Assembly (NCBI GenBank): GCA_048634875.1
Contig: JAIVZN010000016.1
Coordinates: 1-19,832 of the forward strand
From: Deltaproteobacteria bacterium
Lineage (GTDB): Bacteria; CG03; SLGR01; JBDRKX01
DNA length: 19,832 nt
Direction of reading: 5' to 3'
The notes beneath the pieces were generated by a model. The model did no database searches and was not told where the DNA came from. It saw only the letters and a list, made by a program, of their open reading frames with translations. Both the position numbers and the translations under genes were made by a program. Positions 1,366-18,816 of this stretch are shown one piece after another (position 1 is the stretch's first letter; every line of letters begins with the position of its first letter).

Positions 1366-2160
1366 ATGAAAATTTATTATTTTTCAGGAACAGGCAATAC
1401 TTTATTTACAGCAAAAATAATAGCTGATGAGCTGAAAAATAAAGGTATGGATACATCCATTGTTAATATTGAATCCATTAAAGATGAGATAAGTAATATA
1501 GATTATGATTTTATACTTATGTTTCCTGTATATGCATATGGCCCGCCTAAGATTATAAACAAGTTTATAGAAAAATTACCCCTTCAGGTGAGAGGGGAAT
1601 TTAATGTTTACTTAATTTTAAATTATGGACTTTTATCAGTAAATACCTATTCTATAACAGCTAATCTTTTGAAAAAGAAAGGCTATAATGTAAAATACTC
1701 TAACGGGGTAAGAATGCCTGCAAATTACATAAACCTTTACAACCCACCGAAATTAAAGACCTCAGTAAAAAGAGTTGATAAAGCCATACAAGAATTAAAA
1801 ATTATATCTGATGAAATTTTTCATGGCAAAAGAAATAAGATAAAAAGAGGTTTTATATTACTTCGTTTTCCAATGAAAATAATCTACCTACTGTTTGTAA
1901 AATTTTCAGACAGAATGGGCAGTAATTTCTATGCAGATGAAAAATGTAAGGGGTGCGGTATTTGTGTTAAAGCATGCCCTGCTTCAAATATTAAATTTGA
2001 TGATAATAACAGGCCTGTATGGGATAACCTGTGCGAGCAGTGTGTCAGGTGTATTCATTTATGCCCTGAAGGCGCCATACAGTGGTTATTTCTGACAAAA
2101 AAACGAAGACGCTATAAAAACCCGCATATTAAATTAGAAGAATTAGTCCCTCCGCAGTAA
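1366..2160 (+). CDS. Fusion of a flavodoxin-like domain and a 2x[4Fe-4S] ferredoxin domain (EFR1-type ferredoxin)
   Basis: The N-terminus MKIYYFSGTGNT resembles a flavodoxin phosphate-binding loop. The C-terminus carries two CxxCxxCxxxCP motifs (CKGCGICVKACP, CEQCVRCIHLCP). Confidence 0.7.
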   Translation: MKIYYFSGTGNTLFTAKIIADELKNKGMDTSIVNIESIKDEISNIDYDFILMFPVYAYGPPKIINKFIEKLPLQVRGEFNVYLILNYGLLSVNTYSITANLLKKKGYNVKYSNGVRMPANYINLYNPPKLKTSVKRVDKAIQELKIISDEIFHGKRNKIKRGFILLRFPMKIIYLLFVKFSDRMGSNFYADEKCKGCGICVKACPASNIKFDDNNRPVWDNLCEQCVRCIHLCPEGAIQWLFLTKKRRRYKNPHIKLEELVPPQ

Positions 2161-2217
2161 TACACTTTAAATATTCTTTTACTTGCTTTTTAAAGTAAGT
2201 TTGGATATTATTTAATC

Positions 2218-2718
2218 ATGAGAGAGAAAAATTTCCAGTTAAGACTTAAAGATTTGTCATCAGCAAAACCGCCTAAAAAAATTGTAGGTGTTATAGGCGG
2301 GGCTCAGGCTGACAGAGAAATACTTGAAATTGCTAGAAACTTAGGCAGAGAAATTGCAAAAAACGGATATATCCTTGTCTGCGGAGGACTTGGCGGAGTA
2401 ATGCGTGCTGCCTGCATGGGTGCAATAGAAGCCGGCGGGATAACTGTAGGAATACTCCCTGGAACCGACAGAGAATCTGCAAATCCATATGTTACAATTC
2501 CTGTTGTTACTGCAATGAGCCACGCAAGAAATGCAATAATTGTCAGGACTGCTGATATCCTTGTAGCCATAGACGGAAGATACGGTACTCTTTCAGAGAT
2601 TGCGCTTGCAAAAGCAGTTGGAAAGAGGGTGATAGGGTTGTTTACCTGGGAAGAAGTGCCTGGTGTGGAAATGGTAGAGTCAGTAGAAGAAGCAATCCAG
2701 GTAATTAAAGAAACTTGA
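2218..2718 (+). CDS. TIGR00725-family / LOG-like Rossmann-fold protein (lysine-decarboxylase-like)
   Basis: Carries GVIGGA...ILVCGGLGGVM...AIDGRYGTLSE motifs characteristic of the LOG/TIGR00725 family. A fair ribosome-binding site precedes the start. Confidence 0.7.
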   Translation: MREKNFQLRLKDLSSAKPPKKIVGVIGGAQADREILEIARNLGREIAKNGYILVCGGLGGVMRAACMGAIEAGGITVGILPGTDRESANPYVTIPVVTAMSHARNAIIVRTADILVAIDGRYGTLSEIALAKAVGKRVIGLFTWEEVPGVEMVESVEEAIQVIKET

Positions 2719-3149
2719 AAGTAGTAATTCAAAGAGTAAAGAAAGCTTCTGTTACCAGTGGAGATTATTCTGCTATGATAGCTGAAGGGCTGCTTGTCCT
2801 TGTAGGAGTTGCGAAAGACGATGAGATTAAAGATGTTAATTACATGGTAGATAAGACTGTAAATTTAAGGATATTTTCCGATTCCGCAGGAAAGCTGAAT
2901 TTGTCAGTCAGGGATATCGGGGGAGATATTCTTGCAGTACCTCAGTTTACTTTATATGGAGATTGCCGCAAAGGGCGGAGGCCCGGTTTTGAAAGTTGTG
3001 CGGATAGAGTTAAGGGTAAAGACTTTTTTGATGTTTATGTTAATGGATTAAAGGCTGAAGGCGTGAGGGTTGAGACAGGATTGTTTGGGAAAGAAATGGA
3101 AGTAGAACTTGTAAATGATGGGCCTGTTACATTTATTGTAAAAAGTTGA
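2715..3149 (+). CDS. dtd: D-aminoacyl-tRNA deacylase
   Basis: The protein shows MKVVIQRV...SQFTL-like (PQFTLYGD)...NDGPVTF motifs and a length of ~145 aa. Its TTG start overlaps the upstream stop (cTTGA), indicating translational coupling. Confidence 0.85.
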   Translation: MKVVIQRVKKASVTSGDYSAMIAEGLLVLVGVAKDDEIKDVNYMVDKTVNLRIFSDSAGKLNLSVRDIGGDILAVPQFTLYGDCRKGRRPGFESCADRVKGKDFFDVYVNGLKAEGVRVETGLFGKEMEVELVNDGPVTFIVKS

Positions 3150-3185
3150 AAGAAAATGAGATTGGGAGATTAGGAGACTAAAATA

Positions 3186-5042
3186 GTGAAAATAGGAAAG
3201 TTTTTTTTAGGGGTACTCTTAATCGGTACTCTTCTTCATGGTATTCTGCTTCCTAAAATTTTCATAAAGCCGGATAAGCTGGCTTACCTTCATTACAATT
3301 TCATTAAAGTTTCTGTAAAAGGCAGCCCTGATTTCTTAAAAGATACAGTAGCATGTGTGTATAAAAATGGCGAAAAAGTGACTACTGTCGGTGCGCAGGA
3401 TTGTATTAAATTTAAGTATAATCATGAGAGCAAATTGTGGGAAGGGAAATTTCCTGTACCGTGGGGCGCTGAAGACGGGATTTATACCATAAGGTTACTG
3501 CAGGATAATAAATTAATAGATTGGGAACAAGTATTTTATATTAAGACCAGGATTCCGCATGTGAAATTTAACAGTCCATTAAAAATTTTAGACCTTGAAA
3601 GCATGAAGAGGTTAAAAAGTTTTAAAGTTAAGAATCCATCAGGGGAAAGGGTTGGTTATACCGGAATCTTTGACTGGATAAAGTATATCGGAGGCAACAC
3701 TCTATGGTATATAGCAGGCCAGACAGCTTCTTATAAGAAAAATGATTTACAGGAAGATCGTCCCTGGGTCAAAGATAACCTTAAAACATTAAAGGAATTT
3801 GCCGAAAAAGCAAAAAGTGAAAATATAAATTTTGGAGCGTGGATAAGCTGTTTTAGGGTATTTGGGAAGAGCAGTTTGAAACCCGACTGGTATAATTACA
3901 GTTATAAATTATCAAAAGGTAAAGTTGTAGAAACAAATGGAATATCTATTCTTGACCACAAAAGAGTTGACGACATAATAAAACTTGCTAAAACGCTTAA
4001 TGATATGGAATCAGTTGATTATATAGGCCTGGATTACATAAGGCCCGCAGGCGGAGGGCTTGACCTTGTTGATGAGTTTGTTGAAGCAATGGCAGTTGAA
4101 GTGCCTGATAGCTGGAATGAGTTTTCTAAAACCCGGAGAATGGAATGGTTAGGCAGGATTGTTACCCGCTCAAGTAACAGAAATGTTCCTCTAATAGATA
4201 AATGGAACTGGTGGAGAGCGCAGAGGATATCAAAGATTATAAATTTATTAAAAGAAAAAGGTAATTTAAAAAAGCCTCTCTGGACATTTGTGTTGAGCTG
4301 GGAAATGGGGCACCAGCATGGCCAGGATCCTATTATGTTTCAAGATGCGGGAATAGACCTTATTGCAGTTATGATATATGAGACAGATGGCCCGAGGTTT
4401 GACCATATTATAAGTGAATGGAAGGAGTATTTAAAAGATTTTAATGTTAATATTGTAATAGGAAATCAGTTAGACTGGATTTTACATCAGTATTCAGTTT
4501 ATCCGTCAGGACCTGCGGAGTATGCAAGGAGAATGGAAAAAAGCATAGAATATATAGATGAGACAGGAAATTTAAGAGGTCTTTTTATTCATGATTTTGC
4601 CAGGGCAATGCGTGGAAGGCTTGGTCCGTATACTTCAATGGAGTGGCTCATTGGAGGCGCAAGGGGATTTACTAAATTGTCAAAAAAAGAAAACAGAATA
4701 AAAATTAATATAGATATACCTGATGTAATAAAAACAGATGAAATAATTAAAGCCAGTTTGAAGTTAGAAAATCTTACAGATAACAGTTTAAATAATATAA
4801 ATATTAATTTTCCCCGGTTAAGTGGAATAGAAATATTAAATAATGTAAAATTAATTAATGTTTTGAATGTGAAGGAAACAAAAGAAATTCCATTTAATAT
4901 AAGAGTCAGAGGAAAGCCTTGTTATAGAATGGGGCGCTACATGGTAGGTGTAAGGGCTGTTCATGAAGAAGGTGTATATATTGATTTTAAAAATTTCTGG
5001 GTTAAAGGAGTGTCTTTAGATAACGGAAGCAGTTATAGATGA
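3186..5042 (+). CDS. Hypothetical exported or membrane-anchored protein, 618 aa (GTG start). A TIM-barrel glycosidase-like fold is suspected but not verified.
   Basis: The N-terminus carries a hydrophobic signal or anchor (FFLGVLLIGTLLHGILL). It is a long ORF with no motif I recognise. It is tightly followed by two lipoprotein genes. Confidence 0.45.
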   Translation: MKIGKFFLGVLLIGTLLHGILLPKIFIKPDKLAYLHYNFIKVSVKGSPDFLKDTVACVYKNGEKVTTVGAQDCIKFKYNHESKLWEGKFPVPWGAEDGIYTIRLLQDNKLIDWEQVFYIKTRIPHVKFNSPLKILDLESMKRLKSFKVKNPSGERVGYTGIFDWIKYIGGNTLWYIAGQTASYKKNDLQEDRPWVKDNLKTLKEFAEKAKSENINFGAWISCFRVFGKSSLKPDWYNYSYKLSKGKVVETNGISILDHKRVDDIIKLAKTLNDMESVDYIGLDYIRPAGGGLDLVDEFVEAMAVEVPDSWNEFSKTRRMEWLGRIVTRSSNRNVPLIDKWNWWRAQRISKIINLLKEKGNLKKPLWTFVLSWEMGHQHGQDPIMFQDAGIDLIAVMIYETDGPRFDHIISEWKEYLKDFNVNIVIGNQLDWILHQYSVYPSGPAEYARRMEKSIEYIDETGNLRGLFIHDFARAMRGRLGPYTSMEWLIGGARGFTKLSKKENRIKINIDIPDVIKTDEIIKASLKLENLTDNSLNNININFPRLSGIEILNNVKLINVLNVKETKEIPFNIRVRGKPCYRMGRYMVGVRAVHEEGVYIDFKNFWVKGVSLDNGSSYR

Positions 5043-5048
5043 AAGAGG

Positions 5049-6521
5049 ATGAAGATAATTGAGACCATGAAACAGTATTTAGCAGTTTTTGTTGTTTTTA
5101 TGTCTCTAATTGCATGCGGAACTTCTGATACAGTTAATGTGAGAAAACCGGTTGTAAAGGGGCAGTTTTATCCTGCGGGCTCTTATGATTTGAAGAGAAT
5201 GGTTGATAAGTTTATAAGTGTTCCTGTTAATCTTAAAGGAAAAGAGATTTCAGGAATAATTGTGCCGCATGCAGGGTATGTATATTCTGGGTTAACAGCA
5301 GGCTATGGTTTCAGCGCTGTAAAAGGGAAGAGTTTTTCTACGGTTATACTTATTGGCCCGAGCCACCATAGTTTTTTAGAAAAACCCTGTTCATGTGAGT
5401 TTAAAGAGTGGTCAACACCACTTGGCAATATTAAAGTAGATTATAAGCTTTTAAATGATATTAAAAAAATAGAAATAAATATAAATAATAACATATTTAT
5501 ACCAGAGCATAGTTTAGAAGTTGAGTTGCCTTTTCTTCAGAGGGCATTAAAAGGGGAGTTTAAGATTCTTCCTGTACTTATAAATGAGTATAGAATTGAA
5601 AAAATCAAGCCTTATGCAGAAAAACTTGCACGGATTTTAAAAAATAAAAAAGATATTCTTTTTGTTATGTCAACAGATATGTCTCATTATTACAGAGCTT
5701 CCATTGCTGAAGAAATGGATAAGAAAATTACTGAGGCACTTATAAATAAGGATTTTAAAAAAATAGAAAATCTCTTAATGACAAAGAGCGGAGAACTGTG
5801 CGGCGCAGGCGCAGTAATGCTTGGCCTGTTAACTTTAAACGAGTTAGGCATTGATGAAATTATAAAGCTTCATTATTCACATTCAGGTATGGTTTCAGGA
5901 GATAATTTCAGGGTTGTCGGTTATGGGGCATTTGCTGTATGTAAGGGAGGTAAAAAAGTGGGATATAATAGAGAACAGAAGATTAAACTTCTTGAAATTG
6001 CAAGAAAGACCATGGAAACTTATGTCCGTGAAGGTAGAAGGATAGAGATTGATGTCAAAGATGAAGAACTTAAAGAAGAAAGGGGTGTTTTTGTAACTCT
6101 CCATAAGGATGAGCGTCTCAGGGGATGTATTGGAAATATAATGCCTGTAAACAAACTGTATCTTGCTGTTCAGGATATGGCTATCTCCTCTTCAACAAAA
6201 GATCCCAGGTTTTCACCTGTGAAAGAGAATGAATTAGATGATATTGAGATAGAGATATCCGTGCTTACTGTTCCACGGAAAGTTAAGAGTGCTGATGATA
6301 TTGTTATGGGAAGAGACGGGGTCATTGTTAAAAAAGGATACCGCCAGGGGGTATATCTGCCGCAGGTGGCAACTGAGACAGGATGGAGTAAGGAGGAGTT
6401 TTTAAGCAGTCTCTGTTATTCAAAGGCTGGTCTTCCTCGGGATGCATGGAAGGATGGAATTACTGAACTCTATACTTTTCAGGCAGAAGTATTTAATGAA
6501 AAAGAAATGGGAATAAAATAA
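5049..6521 (+). CDS. Fusion of a Memo1-like domain (AmmeMemoRadiSam protein B) and an AMMECR1-like domain (protein A), with a lipobox signal peptide. An alternative start is at 5067.
   Basis: Memo motifs are present: VPHAGYVYSG, LIGPSHH, MSTDMSHYY. The AMMECR1 motif is LRGCIGNIMP. The N-terminus MKQYLAVFVVFMSLIAC|G has a lipobox (LIAC). Confidence 0.75.
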   Translation: MKIIETMKQYLAVFVVFMSLIACGTSDTVNVRKPVVKGQFYPAGSYDLKRMVDKFISVPVNLKGKEISGIIVPHAGYVYSGLTAGYGFSAVKGKSFSTVILIGPSHHSFLEKPCSCEFKEWSTPLGNIKVDYKLLNDIKKIEININNNIFIPEHSLEVELPFLQRALKGEFKILPVLINEYRIEKIKPYAEKLARILKNKKDILFVMSTDMSHYYRASIAEEMDKKITEALINKDFKKIENLLMTKSGELCGAGAVMLGLLTLNELGIDEIIKLHYSHSGMVSGDNFRVVGYGAFAVCKGGKKVGYNREQKIKLLEIARKTMETYVREGRRIEIDVKDEELKEERGVFVTLHKDERLRGCIGNIMPVNKLYLAVQDMAISSSTKDPRFSPVKENELDDIEIEISVLTVPRKVKSADDIVMGRDGVIVKKGYRQGVYLPQVATETGWSKEEFLSSLCYSKAGLPRDAWKDGITELYTFQAEVFNEKEMGIK

Positions 6522-6563
6522 TAATGAGTAAGAACGCTGGATTAAACCAGGAGGAGTGAAAGA

Positions 6564-6908
6564 ATGAATGGTATGAAATTAATATTACTGATATTCTTGT
6601 TTGGTTTCTTGGGGTGTACATCAATGCAGAAGAAAAATCTGGCAACTGAAAATGGAGTTATAAGCGCTTTATTTAATATTCCCGAGAGTACTGTAGAATC
6701 CTTAAGAACAAAGGGGCTGGAAGATGAACAGATTTTAAAACTGTTGATTATTTCAACAGCTACTTATTTAACTCTTCCTGAAATTTTAAGTATGATGGAA
6801 GACGGGGTAAGCCTCCATGAAATAGCAACTGACACCGGAATTGAGCAGGAAGTGCTTCAGGAAAGATTGGACAAAATTAAAAAAGATTTAACCCGGATTT
6901 TGCATTAG
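6564..6908 (+). CDS. Small hypothetical lipoprotein (114 aa)
   Basis: The signal peptide has lipobox FLGC. A GGAGG ribosome-binding site precedes the start. The last six codons lie inside the 5' arm of the structured element that follows. Confidence 0.5.
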   Translation: MNGMKLILLIFLFGFLGCTSMQKKNLATENGVISALFNIPESTVESLRTKGLEDEQILKLLIISTATYLTLPEILSMMEDGVSLHEIATDTGIEQEVLQERLDKIKKDLTRILH

Positions 6909-7052
6909 GAATGAAGAACCGAGACGATAAAGATGCTATATAATACACAAACAAAAAAGTGAAGTAATACTCGTAAGTATTGATGAGCTTTTTTGTGACG
7001 TAGAATGTGGCATATTTTTCGTCGAATTCCATTGTCTAATGCAAAATCCGGG
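6892..7052 (+). ncRNA. Candidate structured ncRNA, copy 1. It has a 17-bp closing helix, an inner 9-bp helix and a terminal hairpin. Family unknown; 6S-like architecture is possible.
   Basis: Perfect closing helix cccggattttgcattag/ctaatgcaaaatccggg; inner helix acaaaaaag/cttttttgt; hairpin aatact-cgta-agtatt. All three helices covary with copy 2 at 16077-16240, while the loop sequences (ggaatgaagaaccgag, gtagaa.tg, gaattccattgt) are conserved. Confidence 0.5.
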
Positions 7053-7053
7053 T

Positions 7054-9195
7054 TTAAATACTTATAAGAGTAACACATCCGAGACTTAAAATCCCTATAG
7101 CAAGTAAAACATCTATAATTCCCATTACAGGGACCATAATTATTGCTCCAATGCATGCAAATAAAAATCCTGAAAGTATAAGTGTATATAATTTAAGTAC
7201 TTCATTGCTGCTGTTTGCTAATATCAGATAACTGTTTATTCCTGAATATAGAATACTTCCAAAAAGAAATCCCCCGATAAATGTAAATATAAATGTACAT
7301 ACAAATGAAGGCGGGGAAATCATTATTTCAAATACCGCTGCAAGCAGTATTAAGAATAACACTGACAGTGTTAAGAATATTCTGAAAGCAGAAATAAATA
7401 CAGCAGGATGTTTTTTTTCTAATAATATTATTGAAAATATCAAACCAATTGCTGTACCTGCGAGTAAGAGCGGTATAAACCGGTATATCTGTCCTGTGCC
7501 TGAATGAAATGAAACAGTGGTATTATAGAGAAATACAGCAAAAACGAAACCTGCTGCAGGGAGTGTAATCTTTAATTTAGTTTCAATAGTTTTCTTTGAA
7601 AACAGCTTTAAAAAGATTAAAATAAAAACTATCAATATAACATAAATAAAATTAGAGTTAATACTTTCACTTAGATTTATAAAAAAACCGGATAATACTC
7701 CAAATGTATAGAGTAACTCATGCAAGGCAAACTTGAGTGATGCAGGTTTAGTGTCAGTATTGATGGAGACACAATTAATATCTAAATCTTTCATTACCTG
7801 TTCTTTTGAATTTATCTTGTATTTTATAAGTGATGGCGATATATAATCAGGAATATCCTCTAAAGCATTCAAAAACTCCGAGAGAGCCCTGTGTGAAGTT
7901 GTGAAATTGCGGTTGTGCGAGGCAAGAATCTGTATTCTTTTTCCATATGATTCTAATGTATTTGGAAATGTTTTTTTCAGGGTATTGTACGCAGTTGCAG
8001 AAAGGAACTTGCGATTTCTGCTTAAATTTTCTTCACCTGTTTTAATTGCAATTGAAATCATTGAATTATTTGATAACACTGAACTGGTTTCCTTGAAAAA
8101 TTCATTGGTGTAGTATCTGTTAAAAAAAATATTTGTAGGGTCAGGAAGTGTTATGATTACAATGTCAAAAATTTTTCCTTTTTCCAGTTTTTTTATAAAA
8201 CTTCGCGGGTCTGAATTATTTAATATTCTGAGTTTTTCAGGATATGTAAATTTAGCCGGCAGTATTTTCCAGCCTTTCTCAAAACAATCAGGCACAGGAT
8301 TAGCCCAGTAGACATTTTTTATATTTGGATATCTTAAAACTTCTTCAATTATTTCATTCCAGCCGCCAATTACAAGTATGCTTTCTGCCCATGGGTATTG
8401 TAATAAAGATGTATGAACTATTTCCTGTGTATTGTGTGTATCAGGGTATTTAAAAAGTCTTGAATGGTTTATTGAAAATATGTATGTATCTCTCTTTTTG
8501 TGGATATAAAGTTCTCCATATGAAGTTATATCGTTTGATATAAGGGTTGTTTTAAATTCTCTTACAAATGATTTTATACTGCAGTTGATATCTTTTGGTA
8601 TTGAACTGAATATCAGTAAAATCAATGCGGTTGCAATAATTCCATATTTAAATTTTGGCAGAGTTTCATATGCTGTAAAACAAAGGACAATAAATCCAAG
8701 AGCGGTTATTACTAAAGCAGAATATAAAAGTTCAAAACGCCATAAAACTATAATGTCAATTAAAAAGTAAAGAGCAGAACCAAAAAATAAAAATTTCATG
8801 TTCAATTTTTTTGTAAGTAATTCATTAAAAAATATCACAAAAGACAAAGCAACAGGCAGAAAAATAAAAAGCGGATAAATTGTCAATGCGTACCATGGAA
8901 GTGGACTGGAAAAGGATAATCCTAACACAATCTTTTCCTGCGACATCAATATGCAGAAAAAAGGTGTATACATGGAACATAATAATACTGATAGGTTAAA
9001 CAGCCTGTGTTTTTTAAGAATGCCGGTTATATTTTTATAGAAAAGGAAACCTGCTAAAATTTCTATTCCGAAGATGAAGAAAAATACTGGCAGATGAAAT
9101 AGAGGAAGCTGTGATAATATAAAAAAACCGCGGAATATTAATATCAATTCCGCGGCTAAAAATGCTCCGAACAATATCAGTGCGGAGATTGTCAT
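7054..9195 (-). CDS. Polytopic membrane protein (713 aa) with a central spermidine-synthase-like (aminopropyltransferase-fold) domain flanked by N- and C-terminal multi-TM regions
   Basis: About 6 TM helices lie at each end. The central block DIVIITLPDPTNIFFNRYYTNEFF matches the SpeE DVIISDCTDPxGP...LFTxEFY block. The SAM-binding GGGDGG motif is degenerate (ILVIGGWNEI). Confidence 0.55.
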   Translation of the reverse strand: MTISALILFGAFLAAELILIFRGFFILSQLPLFHLPVFFFIFGIEILAGFLFYKNITGILKKHRLFNLSVLLCSMYTPFFCILMSQEKIVLGLSFSSPLPWYALTIYPLFIFLPVALSFVIFFNELLTKKLNMKFLFFGSALYFLIDIIVLWRFELLYSALVITALGFIVLCFTAYETLPKFKYGIIATALILLIFSSIPKDINCSIKSFVREFKTTLISNDITSYGELYIHKKRDTYIFSINHSRLFKYPDTHNTQEIVHTSLLQYPWAESILVIGGWNEIIEEVLRYPNIKNVYWANPVPDCFEKGWKILPAKFTYPEKLRILNNSDPRSFIKKLEKGKIFDIVIITLPDPTNIFFNRYYTNEFFKETSSVLSNNSMISIAIKTGEENLSRNRKFLSATAYNTLKKTFPNTLESYGKRIQILASHNRNFTTSHRALSEFLNALEDIPDYISPSLIKYKINSKEQVMKDLDINCVSINTDTKPASLKFALHELLYTFGVLSGFFINLSESINSNFIYVILIVFILIFLKLFSKKTIETKLKITLPAAGFVFAVFLYNTTVSFHSGTGQIYRFIPLLLAGTAIGLIFSIILLEKKHPAVFISAFRIFLTLSVLFLILLAAVFEIMISPPSFVCTFIFTFIGGFLFGSILYSGINSYLILANSSNEVLKLYTLILSGFLFACIGAIIMVPVMGIIDVLLAIGILSLGCVTLISI

Positions 9196-9196
9196 T

Positions 9197-9400
9197 TTAT
9201 TCCATAGTTATTGCTGATACAGGGCAGACTTCCTCGCATGTCCCGCAACCGGTGCAGTCTTCAGGCCGGGCAAGAATTGAAACATCTGTTTCCATTTCAA
9301 GTGCATTTGTTGGACATTCATCAATACAAATTGTGCATCCTGTGCAGGTATCTGCATCTATTACAGGTTTTTCATTATCTGACATAATTCCCTCCTTCAT
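9197..9400 (-). CDS. Small 2x[4Fe-4S] ferredoxin
   Basis: Two CxxCxxCxxxCP motifs in 67 aa (CTGCTICIDECP, CTGCGTCEEVCP). It lies 1 nt upstream of the membrane-protein gene on the same strand. Confidence 0.8.
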   Translation of the reverse strand: MKEGIMSDNEKPVIDADTCTGCTICIDECPTNALEMETDVSILARPEDCTGCGTCEEVCPVSAITME

Positions 9401-9479
9401 TTTAATTTACTGTAGTTGCAAAGCTTGCGTTGCTTTTGAAAGAAATTGTAACATTGATATAACAAATTTCCATTTTTTT

Positions 9480-9508
9480 TTCAAATTTAATTATATTTTG
9501 CTATAATA
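9480..9508 (+). promoter_or_regulatory. Putative sigma70-type promoter (TTCAAA, 17-bp spacer, TATAAT) for the SPFH-hflX-pgsA-der-plsY-gpsA operon
   Basis: Hexamers read directly from the sequence. They sit ~80 nt upstream of the ATG at 9590 inside a divergent intergenic region. Confidence 0.35.
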
Positions 9509-9519
9509 ACTAAAATTGG

Positions 9520-9576
9520 GTAAAGTGTAAAGAGTGAATTTTTTTTTGCTTTACGTTTTACAGTTAACGCTTTACA
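9520..9576 (+). promoter_or_regulatory. Leader hairpin or operator. GUAAAGUGUAAAG (9520-9532) pairs fully, including G.U pairs, with CUUUACGUUUUAC (9549-9561). A third CTTTACA repeat lies at 9570-9576.
   Basis: A 13-nt inverted repeat separated by a T-rich 16 nt. It is perfect as RNA on the + strand and has 2 mismatches as DNA. It sits between the predicted -10 and the ribosome-binding site. Confidence 0.35.
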
Positions 9577-9589
9577 ATAGGAGGTAAAA

Positions 9590-10552
9590 ATGGGTGCATT
9601 GTTTTTGTTGGTTTTTATTGTTATTGCTGTAGTGGTATTTAATGCCATGTTCGGCTCATCTGAAAAGGAGGAAGGTTCAATGGAAAAAGTTATTGATCTT
9701 AAAGGCGAGGTAAAGAAAAAAGCACATATGATAATTATTGGTGTTATTGCGTTTCTTATATTGATCACAGTTATAAAAGGAATTGTGGTTGTTCCCGCAG
9801 GGCACAGGTATGTTGTATTTAATATTTTTAAAGGGGTGCTGGAAAATGAACTTGATGAAGGAATACATATAATACTGCCATACTTAAATACAGTTTCTTC
9901 ATATGATGCAAGGCTGCAGGAATATACAATGTCAAGCATAAGGGGAGAAGGCAGAGTAAATGCGCCTGATAGTCTGTGGTCTCCGACAAAAGAAGGATTG
10001 CAGGTTGGAATTGACCTTACTGTCTGGTATAAAATTGATCCACAGAAAGTTTCTGTGTTACATCAGGAGATTGGTCCTGCATTTGAATCAAAAATAATAA
10101 GACCTTCAGTACGGTCAACTGTAAGACATCATATATCTAAATATGCCATTATGGATGTGTATTCCAAGAAAAGAAAAGAGATAGAAGATAATATATTTAA
10201 TGATTTAAAAGAGCAGTTAACAGTCAATAATATTTTAGTTGAAGGGGTAAAATTAAGAGATGTGATTTTTAAGGATAAATTTGCTGCTTCTATTGAACAG
10301 AAACAGGTTGCCCAGCAGGAGATGGAAAGATGGGAATATATAAAGAAGCAGAGGGAAAAGGAAGCTGATGCAAGAATAATAGAAGCTAAAGGTAAAGCTG
10401 AAGCTATGAGAATTATTGCAAAGCAACTGAAAGCTAACCCTGATATAATAAAATATAATTATGTTGAAAAACTTTCTGATAATATAAGTGTTATAGTAAC
10501 TGATCAATCAACGATTATGGATTTAAAAGGAATGCTTGACCGGAAAAAATAA
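9590..10552 (+). CDS. SPFH/band-7 (prohibitin/HflK/C-like) membrane protein
   Basis: Strong AGGAGGT ribosome-binding site; N-terminal TM segments; SPFH-domain and coiled-coil (QQEMERWEYIKKQREKEADARIIEAKGKAEAMR) tail typical of band-7 proteins. Confidence 0.8.
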   Translation: MGALFLLVFIVIAVVVFNAMFGSSEKEEGSMEKVIDLKGEVKKKAHMIIIGVIAFLILITVIKGIVVVPAGHRYVVFNIFKGVLENELDEGIHIILPYLNTVSSYDARLQEYTMSSIRGEGRVNAPDSLWSPTKEGLQVGIDLTVWYKIDPQKVSVLHQEIGPAFESKIIRPSVRSTVRHHISKYAIMDVYSKKRKEIEDNIFNDLKEQLTVNNILVEGVKLRDVIFKDKFAASIEQKQVAQQEMERWEYIKKQREKEADARIIEAKGKAEAMRIIAKQLKANPDIIKYNYVEKLSDNISVIVTDQSTIMDLKGMLDRKK

Positions 10553-16246: not shown

Positions 16247-16321
<75 letters not shown>

Positions 16322-16385
16322 GAAAGATAAATGATAAATAAAATGTAGTGGTGCGATTTATCGCACAAATTGTATTTAAGGTTAT

Positions 16386-16462
16386 CGGGATGTAGCGCAG
16401 TCTGGCAGCGCACTCGTCTGGGGGGCGAGTGGTCGCCGGTTCAAATCCGGCCATCCCGACCA
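16386..16462 (+). tRNA. tRNA-Pro (anticodon GGG), CCA encoded
   Basis: Acceptor cgggatg/catcccg, D-stem gcgc/gcgc, anticodon stem ctcgt/gcgag with loop CTGGGGG (G37), T-arm gccgg-TTCAAAT-ccggc, discriminator A. Confidence 0.9.
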
Positions 16463-16464
16463 AA

Positions 16465-16523
16465 TGTAAACGGAAAGTAGAAATGCACCACTCGCGGAAA
16501 ATAAAAGTGCACCAAATGAAGGA
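16465..16523. repeat. IS21 terminal inverted repeat (istB-proximal end)
   Basis: tgtaaacggaaagtagaaatgcaccactcgcggaaaataaaagtgcaccaaatgaagga matches the reverse complement of 18873-18932, with ~6 differences and 1 indel. Confidence 0.75.
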
Positions 16524-16531
16524 GTAATGGT

Positions 16532-17269
16532 TTATTCCTCCTTTTCTTTAATTCTAAAAGATTTACCGCTCAAATTAAACACCTTTGAATGATGTAATAG
16601 ACGGTCAAGCATTGCTACCGTCATTATTTCATCTCCCATCATTTCCGCCCAATCATCGAATTTCTTATTCGATGTGATAATGACTGATGATTTCTCATAC
16701 AATTCACTAATCAAATTAAAAAACAGATTTGCCTCCTTTCTTTCAATCGGCGTATAGCCGATTTCATCTATTACTGTAAGATCTGACTTTAATATACGAT
16801 TTATTCTAAATCCGGCACTTCTCTGAATGTCTGCCATCTTAAGGAGCTTGATCAAGTTATTTACCCTCTCAAAACAGACAGTATACCCAGCTTGCACAGC
16901 TTTCATGCCGATAGCTATTGAAAGATGAGTTTTCCCTAATCCGGGAGGTCCAAAAAACAGTATGTTTTCATGATTATCCAGCCAGGTGAAGTCCATAAGA
17001 TGGGATGTGTCGGATTTCGTAATACCTTTTACCCGTGAAAACATGAAATCTTCAAATTGTTTTTCTACAGGGAAATGAGCTCCGACTAGATTTCTCCTGA
17101 GTCTTCTTTCCGTCCTGAAATCCACCTCAGTTTTCAATATGTTGCCTAAGAAACTCAAATATGATATTTTCTTCTCTTCAGCTTCCGATATCTCGCTATC
17201 GAGATCGTTAGCTATGCCTTTAAGTTTCAAACTCTCAAGCAAGTGTACCATTTGCTGATATTTTTTCAT
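16532..17269 (-). CDS. istB: IS21-family helper ATPase IstB
   Basis: Walker A GPPGLGKTHL and Walker B LTVIDEIGY; 245 aa, typical IstB length. Confidence 0.9.
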   Translation of the reverse strand: MKKYQQMVHLLESLKLKGIANDLDSEISEAEEKKISYLSFLGNILKTEVDFRTERRLRRNLVGAHFPVEKQFEDFMFSRVKGITKSDTSHLMDFTWLDNHENILFFGPPGLGKTHLSIAIGMKAVQAGYTVCFERVNNLIKLLKMADIQRSAGFRINRILKSDLTVIDEIGYTPIERKEANLFFNLISELYEKSSVIITSNKKFDDWAEMMGDEIMTVAMLDRLLHHSKVFNLSGKSFRIKEKEE

Positions 17270-18816
17270 GACCGTGCCTCCGTTACCAGTTTGTGATAAT
17301 CTTCGATATTCCGGGTTTCTACCTGAAAAACCGGGTTTTTCTCTGAGATAGTCTTTAATTCCGGATTATTGCCGAGTTTGCAGTCCGGTATATCCAGTTC
17401 GGCTTCCTGCTTGCAATACAGGTATGTGTCATACAGATTTGCCATGCTATATGTCCGGTTATCAAGACATAGCTTGAGCGCTGGCTTTAGATATTCTGTA
17501 TTTATGCCGCTGGAGAACTTCTTCATCGCATCGCTGTACTGATCACGGAAGTATCGTGGGTACGTCTGATAATTCTTATCTATAAACACCTTCCATAATT
17601 CTAATGAAAACATACATTGCAATTTCTCTTTCAATTCTCGCTGCTGGGTTTCTTTGCGATAACTGCGGGTATGATTTACTACTTTTGTGCCGGGAATTGG
17701 GCATATCTCGTATTCCTGTATTTTCTCACTGGTGCGGATATCATAGATAAACAACATCTCGTTTGTCCTGTATATCTCTACTTCCCGGTTGCGGTAATCT
17801 TCCGGCACAGGATACTTGCATGAATTTACCGAGATAGTACCTAATGTGTCGACCTTGCGTTTTTCCCGTCCCACAGAGATATTGCTGCGGTATATCGAAT
17901 TCCTTAAAGGTCTCAGATGCTTTTTCTCCTCAGCAAACATTTCTCTGGGTATCCGTCGGGTAGCAAGCGATATCTTGCCATTGGCCCGGCGGCTGAGCCA
18001 TCTAAGACCCCGATCACAAGTTTCATCTATATCTTCAAAATCCCGGAGCCGGAGAAAGTTTCTTTTTATGAACTTGATCAAGTTCTCTATCTTGCCTTTA
18101 GTCTCGGGATCGCTCTTCCTGCATACATACATTTTCAGATCCATTTCTTCTCTGAAATGCCGGAAATCTTTTGTATATATTATGTCGCCATTGTTTTCTT
18201 TTAATACCATCACAGAATCCTGATCTATTACCAGTTCCTCCGGCATACCTCCCATATACTCAAAGCAATCCAGAAGATGGTTTATCAGATCCAGCGCAGT
18301 GAAATGTTCTGTTTGAAATGAGCAGTATTTGTAGCGGCTTGCGGATAATACTGCTCCAAATATATACAGTTTCAAGCCACTTCGTGTAAGATATTCACCA
18401 AAATCTATCTGCATCTGCTTGCCATAGGGCAATTCTTCAACAGGATAATATTTCCGGGGAGTTTCATTGAATATCAGTTGTCCTGTATCTGTCAGATAGT
18501 TGATGTAATTCCGGAAACATCTTTCTGTTCCAGGAAGATCCCCGCATTTCTCTTCAAGATAATCATATACTGCGGCTTTCTCAAGTTTCTGGAAATCATT
18601 TTCTCGGTATACATCTAAGATATTTGTCTTGAAGGGCTCGAATATCTTGGTTCGATTCCTCACAGTTTCTATATATCGGAGATATTGCTTCTCCGTCATA
18701 TCGAAATATTTTATTACCGTCCTCTTGTTTAAACCGGTTGTGCGGATAATGTCCGATTTGCTGAAACCACGCTTTTTGAAGTTCTGTATTCGCTGATACA
18801 TAATTTTGTTAACCAT
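17266..18816 (-). CDS. istA: IS21-family transposase IstA
   Basis: N-terminal helix-turn-helix followed by a DDE catalytic core; 516 aa; precedes and overlaps istB. Confidence 0.9.
   Translation of the reverse strand: MVNKIMYQRIQNFKKRGFSKSDIIRTTGLNKRTVIKYFDMTEKQYLRYIETVRNRTKIFEPFKTNILDVYRENDFQKLEKAAVYDYLEEKCGDLPGTERCFRNYINYLTDTGQLIFNETPRKYYPVEELPYGKQMQIDFGEYLTRSGLKLYIFGAVLSASRYKYCSFQTEHFTALDLINHLLDCFEYMGGMPEELVIDQDSVMVLKENNGDIIYTKDFRHFREEMDLKMYVCRKSDPETKGKIENLIKFIKRNFLRLRDFEDIDETCDRGLRWLSRRANGKISLATRRIPREMFAEEKKHLRPLRNSIYRSNISVGREKRKVDTLGTISVNSCKYPVPEDYRNREVEIYRTNEMLFIYDIRTSEKIQEYEICPIPGTKVVNHTRSYRKETQQRELKEKLQCMFSLELWKVFIDKNYQTYPRYFRDQYSDAMKKFSSGINTEYLKPALKLCLDNRTYSMANLYDTYLYCKQEAELDIPDCKLGNNPELKTISEKNPVFQVETRNIEDYHKLVTEARS

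Follow-up and report, generated by a model that had tools for sequence, protein, structure and literature searches.

A Memo-AMMECR1 fusion with a predicted lipoprotein leader and a candidate exported variant of the AmmeMemoRadiSam system

The AmmeMemoRadiSam system is described by three curated families, an AMMECR1-like protein A (TIGR04335), a Memo-like protein B (TIGR04336) and a radical S-adenosylmethionine (radical-SAM) enzyme (TIGR04337). Eukaryotes have retained Memo and AMMECR1 with no dedicated radical-SAM enzyme, and the solved proteins, human MEMO1 (3bcz, 7kq8) and AMMECR1/PH0010 (1vaj), are separate, soluble and intracellular, with neither a signal peptide nor a dedicated radical-SAM or membrane partner. 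The abstract of a paper published in 2019 by Burroughs and co-workers is said to link Memo to isoprenoid or base modification. Here we analyse contig JAIVZN010000016.1 of assembly GCA_048634875.1 (19,832 bp; the entire contig is referred to below as the window), in which a single gene encodes Memo and AMMECR1 domains in one polypeptide with a predicted lipoprotein signal peptide at its N-terminus. In our assessment, this gene probably (at a rough probability of 0.6) belongs to a widespread exported variant of the system, composed of a lipid-anchored fusion, a leader-bearing TIGR04337 enzyme and a membrane protein with 14 transmembrane (TM) segments and a spermidine synthase (SpeE)-like domain.

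The locus resembles the described system in that the fusion passes the models of both A and B, and its relatives in other phyla adjoin bona fide TIGR04337 genes. It differs from that system in the fusion of A with B, in the export leader carried by the fusion (and in relatives by the radical-SAM enzyme too), in the additional conserved SpeE-like component and in the absence of a radical-SAM gene from the locus in the window and its subclade. A TIGR04337 enzyme encoded together with A and B was found in the relatives from other phyla and in one sister locus (L087, see below), and not in the window.

The fused gene and its leader

The reading frame of the fusion (Table 1) was verified and translates to 490 aa. 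Its Memo half matches PF01875 (E = 1.2e-58, 198.9 bits against a cut-off of 27) and the entire TIGR04336 model (positions 1-270 of 270; 244.2 bits against 26, E = 1.4e-72), and its AMMECR1 half matches the entire PF01871 model (positions 1-168 of 168; E = 3.6e-58, 196.2 bits against 25) and TIGR04335 (187.9 bits against 99, E = 9.6e-56). With both domains far above the curated Pfam and NCBIfam cut-offs, these hidden Markov model searches uphold the B+A fusion proposed in an earlier, sequence-only note on this contig (the original prediction). The families and folds are those of the solved proteins, the N-terminal half matching human MEMO1 (3bcz) at ~1e-18 and the C-terminal half matching PH0010 (1vaj) at 1.2e-37. 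The metal-site residues (H74, H106, D210, H213 and C251) are conserved as well, with H74, H106, D210 and H213 aligning to human MEMO1 at positions that we take to be H49, H81, D189 and H192. An alignment of 40 homologues showed C251 to be near-invariant and the RGCIG (aa 358-362) and LPQVA motifs to be invariant or near-invariant. The anticipated succession of His-rich Memo motifs and RGCIG is thus present and intact.

Translation probably starts at the second ATG (position 5067, giving a product of 484 aa), since the N-termini of homologues read MKKYL... and a 484-aa member falls into the same 90% cluster; the signal peptide would be kept whole. Both candidate starts precede the hydrophobic segment, with no further in-frame start between that segment and the Memo domain. 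The N-terminus reads MKIIETMKQYLAVFVVFMSLIA followed by CGTSD, with a canonical lipobox (L-I-A-C) by motif. Examined by motif, hydropathy and conservation, it agrees with the pattern of a lipoprotein signal (a charged n-region, an h-region and [LVI][ASTVI][GAS]C some 15-25 residues in), the candidate lipidated residue being Cys23 (codon 5115-5117; residue 17 if counted from the second ATG). The lipoprotein-type signal of the original prediction is therefore retained, but its cleavage point is to be moved from after the cysteine to before it.

Among the 120 closest fused homologues, a hydrophobic leader precedes the point (G-x-F-Y-P) at which the Memo domain begins in at least 114. A relaxed lipobox is found in 33 of the 120, and in most of the 15 nearest the h-region ends in Cys. 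The conservation of these leaders lends support to the earlier idea of an extracytoplasmic Memo/AMMECR1 module, and we regard the fusion as a predicted lipoprotein that would be exported via Sec and lipidated.

On the other hand, the fusion as such, which had been presented as a departure from a system of three separate proteins, turned out to be ordinary. All of the best 120 matches in a search of 5.8 billion proteins are fused (~480-520 aa, with both Pfam domains) and come from Elusimicrobiota, Omnitrophota, Ratteibacteria and other groups. The architecture already bears a name, 'AmmeMemoRadiSam system protein B/AmmeMemoRadiSam system protein A' at JGI and likewise at NCBI. A scan of genomes detected at least 598 stretches encoding the fusion, distributed over Omnitrophota, Planctomycetota, Bacteroidota, Latescibacterota, Zixibacteria, Desulfobacterota, Acidobacteriota, Leptospirales and more.

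Radical-SAM enzymes and a membrane partner in related loci

The genomic context of the fusion was compared across 80 fused-gene loci of other phyla. A signature of the radical-SAM enzyme (GCN..C..CQNW.ISQ) was found in 39 open reading frames (ORFs) in 38 of these loci; a second signature match in one of them (L053, 2098-3057) was rejected as a partner, being PflA-like. The neighbouring radical-SAM proteins that were tested all belong to TIGR04337 (10 of 10, E from 1e-106 to 1e-116), and in all ten cases 27-100 residues precede model position 2-8. Such extensions are of two kinds, plain hydrophobic and Tat-like (resembling signals for twin-arginine translocation, e.g. SRRNFL, SRRAFI, SRREFL, NRRDFIKKG and (S/N)KR(E/D)F(L/I)K), and a Tat-like [KR]R.F[LI] motif is carried by 13 of 35 radical-SAM partners. 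With the curated Tat model TIGR01409 (cut-off 16.7 bits) the RR-type leaders scored 19.8 (L087), 15.7 (L054), 15.5 (L034), 12.9 (L043), 12.6 (L044) and 9.6 bits (L033), and the Pfam TAT_signal model gave one weak match (E = 0.16) among the full-length partners.

The presence of a leader on the radical-SAM enzyme tracks its presence on the fusion (23/28 versus 1/7, Fisher p = 0.0017, uncorrected for phylogeny), and leaderless fusions (~19 loci) pair with leaderless radical-SAM enzymes. Because the leaders on the two proteins are mostly present or missing together, the fused system is, as far as can be judged from these N-termini, of two forms, one predicted to be cytosolic and the other with predicted export signals on both enzymes. 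An adjacent TIGR04337 gene was found in 16 of the 23 signal-bearing loci of other phyla with adequate flanks; the enzyme usually bears a predicted export leader of its own, and the other 7 loci have no adjacent gene of this kind. One of the leaderless cases, an 801-aa protein (L057:8978-11383), is a triple fusion of a radical-SAM domain with a TIGR04337-type motif, Memo and AMMECR1, which represents the whole system as one predicted cytosolic polypeptide.

The most telling relative is a locus from an Elusimicrobiota metagenome-assembled genome (L087), the fusion of which is 53% identical to that of the window and has a Cys-terminated leader. Its operon comprises, in this order, the fusion, a TatA/E gene (PF02416, 8.7e-20), a gene for a 1165-aa SpeE-like protein, a TIGR04337 gene (5e-122) and a 50-aa fragment. 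The 1165-aa protein combines the arrangement of seven TM segments, SpeE-like domain and seven TM segments with an RnfG/NosR-type FMN_bind module and a NapH/NosR-type Fer4_5 module with CX3CP motifs. The hydrophobic leader and first residues of the TIGR04337 protein (L087:8858-10261) are encoded in an upstream 96-aa ORF, and since this ORF sits in a different frame, the gene appears to be split by a frameshift. The 50-aa fragment, in which a Tat signal (TRRNFIKGSAILIAG, 19.8 bits with TIGR01409) is joined to another TIGR04337 N-terminus, looks like the remnant of a second, Tat-targeted copy. A tblastn search across all loci for tatA and for NosR-like modules found them in L087 only, so neither can be considered a general feature of the system. 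NosR, NapH and Rnf modules carry electrons across the membrane to periplasmic acceptors, and the FMN_bind modules of NosR, RnfG and NqrC are periplasmic. As modules of these types are fused to some versions of the membrane partner, we infer that this partner links a cytoplasmic reductant with the exported enzymes.

The family of this membrane partner, represented in the window by a 713-aa protein, was picked out by unbiased clustering of all flanking ORFs, in which, the radical-SAM enzyme aside, no other true neighbour was as widely shared (homologues in 16-17 loci of other phyla). When loci flanked by 4 kb or more on each side are counted, it accompanies 11 of 23 signal-bearing fusions versus 0 of 9 leaderless ones (p = 0.013). 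By its gene context the 713-aa protein is a conserved partner of signal-bearing fusions; encoded, together with a small ferredoxin, on the opposite strand, it had been overlooked in the original choice of partners. A word-indexed homology search with this protein returned 10 matches, and the size of the family was taken from an exhaustive profile search, which gave 2,136 representative clusters at E<=1e-30, with lengths of 700-840 aa in almost every case. In a reverse test of context, the two most distant matches of the word-indexed search (25% identical) were both located inside AmmeMemoRadiSam operons, one with the order fusion, SpeE-like protein, radical-SAM enzyme (P0220) and the other with the order radical-SAM enzyme, fusion, 139-aa ORF, membrane protein with FMN_bind and Fer4_5 (P0221). 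Around the latter operon lie genes of the PMT/PMT_2 (GT-C type), PAP2 and GT2 families, a setting that hints at polyprenyl-phosphate or envelope glycolipid metabolism. A second Spermine_synth-containing protein (805 aa, L089:1-1313), a paralogue of the 14-TM partner, is encoded ~9 kb from the system in one of the relatives of the window.

With respect to its sequence, the 713-aa protein scores 30.3 bits with PF01564 (cut-off 22.9), 53.8 bits (1e-14) with PRK03612 (cut-off 472) and 29.1 bits with the SpeE equivalog TIGR00417, below its cut-off of 249.55. Its soluble domain (~300 aa) adopts a complete two-domain SpeE fold in an AlphaFold2 model (Foldseek probability 1.0), with target-normalised template-modelling scores of 0.6-0.68 and 13-17% identity to 8iyi, 1inl, 2o06 and 1uir. 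The two-domain fold and a weak sequence similarity are shared with SpeE (1uir, 1inl, 2o06), with PRK03612 and with the NF037959 'fused MFS/spermidine synthase' proteins. Unlike in these families, the domain sits between two 7-TM bundles, is predicted to be periplasmic, stays below the equivalog cut-offs and, in this subclade, has had canonical acids replaced. In a profile alignment with SpeE of T. thermophilus (1uir), W279 occupies the place of the acid of the GGG(D/E)G loop, N299 that of the ribose-binding acid, and T/S that of the first catalytic Asp, D329 and D352 being kept.

A positive-inside analysis of 129 representatives of the family, carried out with our own hydropathy-based method, gave 7+7 TM segments as the topology mode. 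Loops on the side opposite to the SpeE-like domain hold more K+R than those on the same side, both in the N-side (8.9 versus 4.2) and in the C-side bundle (9.7 versus 2.5); the bias has this direction in 102 (N-side) and 112 (C-side) proteins, and 19 and 16, respectively, show the opposite one. This bias places the SpeE-like domain outside the cytoplasm, and we therefore predict it to be periplasmic. With NosR, NapH and RnfG, the SpeE-like proteins of L087 and P0221 have in common their fusion to FMN_bind (PF04205) and Fer4_5 (PF12801); the 713-aa protein of the window differs in having no such modules, a separate small ferredoxin gene being present upstream instead. A gap of 1 nt separates this gene from the SpeE-like gene that follows it, a spacing from which the two are probably co-transcribed, and by analogy the 713-aa protein and the ferredoxin would take part in electron transfer. 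The same pairing occurs in L081, L082, L084, L085, L088 and L089. In other phyla, the SpeE-like gene was found to have no small ferredoxin gene next to it, which makes this feature specific to Elusimicrobiota.

An exported variant and the competing explanations

No radical-SAM gene was found in the window, the remaining ORFs of which were all assigned, and tblastn with a TIGR04337 protein returned chance matches only (E>2), without any remnant, in agreement with the original prediction. The arrangement around the fusion is common to six Elusimicrobiota genomes (the window, with its near-identical contig L081, and L082, L084, L085, L088 and L089). One strand carries, in this order, SLOG, Dtd, the 618-aa protein, the fusion and a lipoprotein of ~112 aa; on the opposite strand, in convergent orientation, a 62-aa 2x[4Fe-4S] ferredoxin is followed by the SpeE-like protein. 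The ferredoxin is counted as part of the block because synteny in L084 stops directly after it. Within the available 3-10 kb of flank, no TIGR04337 gene was found in L082, L084, L085, L088 and L089; a radical-SAM gene of L085 (19044 onward) was considered and rejected, being HpnJ/B12-class-like. A lone fusion without a radical-SAM partner is thus a correct description of the window but not of the fusion in general, as the situation is confined to one Elusimicrobiota subclade, whose sister L087 has the enzyme together with tatA. Operon boundaries were drawn from gene spacing, since a scan of positions 2100-9700 for promoters and terminators yielded no more sites than shuffled sequence.

Table 1. 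Features of the fusion locus in the window
Feature	Position	Strand	Description
Memo-AMMECR1 fusion gene (AmmeMemoRadiSam B+A)	5049..6521	+	490 aa; Pfam and NCBIfam matches
Predicted lipoprotein signal peptide	5049..5117	+	n-region MK(IIETMK)QY, h-region LAVFVVFMS, lipobox L-I-A-C
Memo (LigB/PCAD-like) domain	5148..5930	+	aa 34-294; PF01875, TIGR04336
AMMECR1 domain with RGCIG and LPQVA motifs	5991..6494	+	aa 315-482; PF01871, TIGR04335
618-aa membrane-anchored glycoside-hydrolase-like protein	3186..5042	+	TM helix, beta-sandwich, (beta/alpha)8 barrel, beta-sandwich
114-aa predicted small lipoprotein	6564..6908	+	MNGMKLILLIFLFGFLG before C..., lipobox FLG before C; directly downstream of the fusion
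713-aa polytopic membrane protein	7054..9195	-	convergent with the fusion operon; 7 TM, SpeE-fold domain (~aa 215-500), ~7 TM
Small 2x[4Fe-4S] ferredoxin	9197..9400	-	62-67 aa; sequence and ferredoxin family matches

In the exported variant as we propose it, the fusion would be exported by Sec and anchored by its lipid, with both catalytic domains at the outer face of the cytoplasmic membrane. The TIGR04337 enzyme, which has a leader of its own (Tat-type or hydrophobic), would either be exported folded by Tat or stay anchored by the leader. The 14-TM protein, exposing its spermidine-synthase-fold domain to the periplasm, would link the exported enzymes with the cytoplasm; its most plausible role would be the transfer of low-potential electrons, and it may also pass on a SAM-related ligand or a membrane-embedded substrate. 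The window would hold the first and the third of these parts as convergent units (5049-6521 on the plus strand and 9400-7054 on the minus strand), with the gene of a cytoplasmic ferredoxin ahead of that of the membrane protein. As to the substrate, an envelope lipid, a polyprenyl or a polyamine-like molecule is our guess, which we make with low confidence and with which the genes around the P0221 operon would agree. The further proposition that a complete radical-SAM system operates outside the cytoplasm, as the first chemistry of this kind, and that the lineage of the window is a derived one in which the radical-SAM gene was moved or lost, is tentative, and we would give it rather less than even odds.

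A number of points weigh against an exported system. To our knowledge, radical-SAM enzymes are not known from the periplasm, nor is that compartment known to contain SAM or a low-potential reductant. Many radical-SAM partners (in Omnitrophota and Planctomycetota) have Sec-like leaders without twin arginines, which is awkward for an iron-sulphur enzyme, and the KR-type leaders of the Bacteroidota enzymes gave no match to TIGR01409. In the literature consulted we found nothing on a periplasmic or Tat-exported radical-SAM enzyme, nor on a link between AMMECR1 and spermidine-synthase-like proteins; the exported variant is apparently undescribed, although some of it may already be in Burroughs et al. 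2019. The AlphaFold2 model of the 713-aa protein is of moderate confidence (a mean predicted local distance difference test score, pLDDT, of 66), and the loss of canonical acids makes binding of SAM or decarboxylated SAM, and catalysis, by the SpeE-like domain of the subclade doubtful. The loci compared are mostly contigs of metagenome-assembled genomes, the co-occurrence statistics are uncorrected for phylogeny, and leader classes and TM calls come from our own hydropathy and regular-expression heuristics. Finally, the radical-SAM gene is absent from all six loci of the subclade, a lineage that may use none.

This absence would be accounted for if the subclade had lost the enzyme and the exported fusion, with the SpeE-like protein (and the ferredoxin), acted without radical-SAM chemistry, as MEMO1 and AMMECR1 do in eukaryotes. 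The lack of even a remnant in the window and of a TIGR04337 gene near the fusion in the five other genomes is consistent with a loss, as is a SpeE-like protein that lacks the NosR-like electron-transfer fusion of L087, and the eukaryotic proteins provide a precedent. We nevertheless consider a loss somewhat unlikely. The coupling of ferredoxin and SpeE-like protein in all six genomes suggests that an electron consumer persists, all conserved residues of both fusion domains are kept as in the radical-SAM-linked relatives, and 7 of the 23 signal-bearing loci of other lineages are also without an adjacent radical-SAM gene. On these same grounds, the radical-SAM component is most likely encoded elsewhere in the genome. 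The gap could also be an artefact, the fusion being a routine cytosolic protein with a mis-called start and its partner gene lying just past the contig end; the window is, after all, a complete short contig, and genes past its ends are unseen. We attach hardly any weight to this explanation, as no choice of start removes the hydrophobic segment, the leader is conserved among the homologues, and related contigs reach 8-10 kb on either side without TIGR04337. A different view of the N-termini would make them anchors by which a complex facing the cytoplasm is held at the inner membrane face, so that the chemistry would stay cytoplasmic. Such anchoring would do away with the problem of supplying SAM and reductant, and it accords with the many radical-SAM leaders that are not of the twin-arginine type and with Tat-model scores that mostly fall just under the cut-off. 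It appears very unlikely to us, given that a Cys right after the h-region and positive n-regions imply N-in/C-out export, that 13 radical-SAM partners have a [KR]R.F[LI] motif and one operon contains tatA, that the SpeE-like domain is predicted to be non-cytoplasmic in more than 100 of the 129 proteins, and that the FMN_bind modules fused to some of them are of a kind known as periplasmic.

The fusion could, alternatively, form a three-gene extracytoplasmic unit with the upstream 618-aa protein and the downstream small lipoprotein. The gap between the 618-aa gene and the fusion is 6 nt (with 4-nt overlaps in L082, L084 and L085), each of the three products has an export or anchor signal, and the trio is conserved in the subclade; the tight cluster of the original prediction, with the TM helix and lipobox of its two flanking products, holds to that extent, whereas a joint module of the three is doubtful. 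The 618-aa protein belongs to no Pfam or NCBIfam family, and its model (pLDDT 90.4, predicted template-modelling score 0.89) shows an N-terminal TM helix and a glycoside hydrolase (GH)-like barrel, structurally closest to GH5, GH35, GH2, GH36 and GH13 (with low global template-modelling scores of 0.3-0.4), for which a chemical link to the fusion is not evident. The family has just 81 members, mostly from Elusimicrobiota; none of the 80 fused-gene loci of other phyla contains a homologue of the 618-aa protein or of the 114-aa lipoprotein, and in L086 a homologue of the former is placed between SLOG and Dtd and adjoins no fusion. Because its family is narrow, does not accompany fusions of other phyla and has a member without a fusion in L086, the adjacency of the 618-aa protein to the fusion probably reflects lineage synteny with SLOG/Dtd and not a functional partnership, and we regard the three-gene unit as improbable. 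An exported variant in which the fusion acts with the radical-SAM enzyme and the SpeE-like protein remains our preferred reading.

Other genes of the window and wider significance

The 618-aa protein was also considered as a cryptic radical-SAM enzyme and rejected, in view of its lack of CxxxCxxC and its GH-like barrel model. The 114-aa lipoprotein, which may be an accessory factor, has no Pfam or NCBIfam assignment and is conserved in the Elusimicrobiota subclade only, with a 53% identical homologue in L082/L083 and an ORF of 110-113 aa at the same position in the other subclade loci. A further region of L086 (13876-16245), a few kb from the homologue of the 618-aa protein, contains a classical, unfused, apparently leaderless Memo gene (267 aa) and a 305-aa radical-SAM gene with a DUF3108-like gene between them; cytosolic-type and exported-type arrangements therefore both occur in related candidate-phylum bacteria.

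Other genes of the window encode an EFR1-type ferredoxin, SLOG/LOG-like and Dtd proteins, an SPFH protein, HflX, a CDP-alcohol phosphatidyltransferase, Der, PlsY, GpsA, HU and a MerR regulator, in addition to two tRNA genes and an IS21 element. The EFR1-family ferredoxin (1366-2160; a flavodoxin-like domain with 2x[4Fe-4S]; NF038196, 2.5e-62) lies upstream of SLOG-Dtd, at a position that is not conserved in the relatives. The tRNA genes (16247-16318 and 16386-16459) are followed by the IS21-family element on the minus strand, composed of istB (16532-17269; PF01695, 5e-73) and istA (17266-18816; rve domain), the whole region spanning 16247-18816. At one contig edge, an ORF of 424 aa (22-1296, TTG start, possibly truncated) ends in ...TATLKY; it matches no Pfam or NCBIfam family, has been seen only in the near-identical contig L081, and its product might be an outer-membrane beta-barrel. 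At the other edge, purine-rich tandem repeats with periods of 54, 33, 66, 129 and 162 nt extend from 19146 to the contig end at 19832. They may be plus-strand coding sequence for a K/E-rich repeat protein that continues past the contig end, or may be non-coding, and on the minus strand they give rise to Cys-rich open frames that are spurious.

The conservation of the enigmatic Memo and AMMECR1 domains extends from archaea to humans, and they are tied to human disease. A widespread exported version, if confirmed, would narrow the possible substrates toward molecules of the envelope or membrane and would offer new handles for the genetics and biochemistry of Memo and AMMECR1. Radical-SAM action in the periplasm, if true, would overturn the assumption that this chemistry is limited to the cytoplasm and would lead one to ask by what route SAM and low-potential electrons arrive there. 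The window itself provides a clean and conserved case without a nearby radical-SAM gene, useful for asking whether a Memo-AMMECR1 protein can act without that enzyme.

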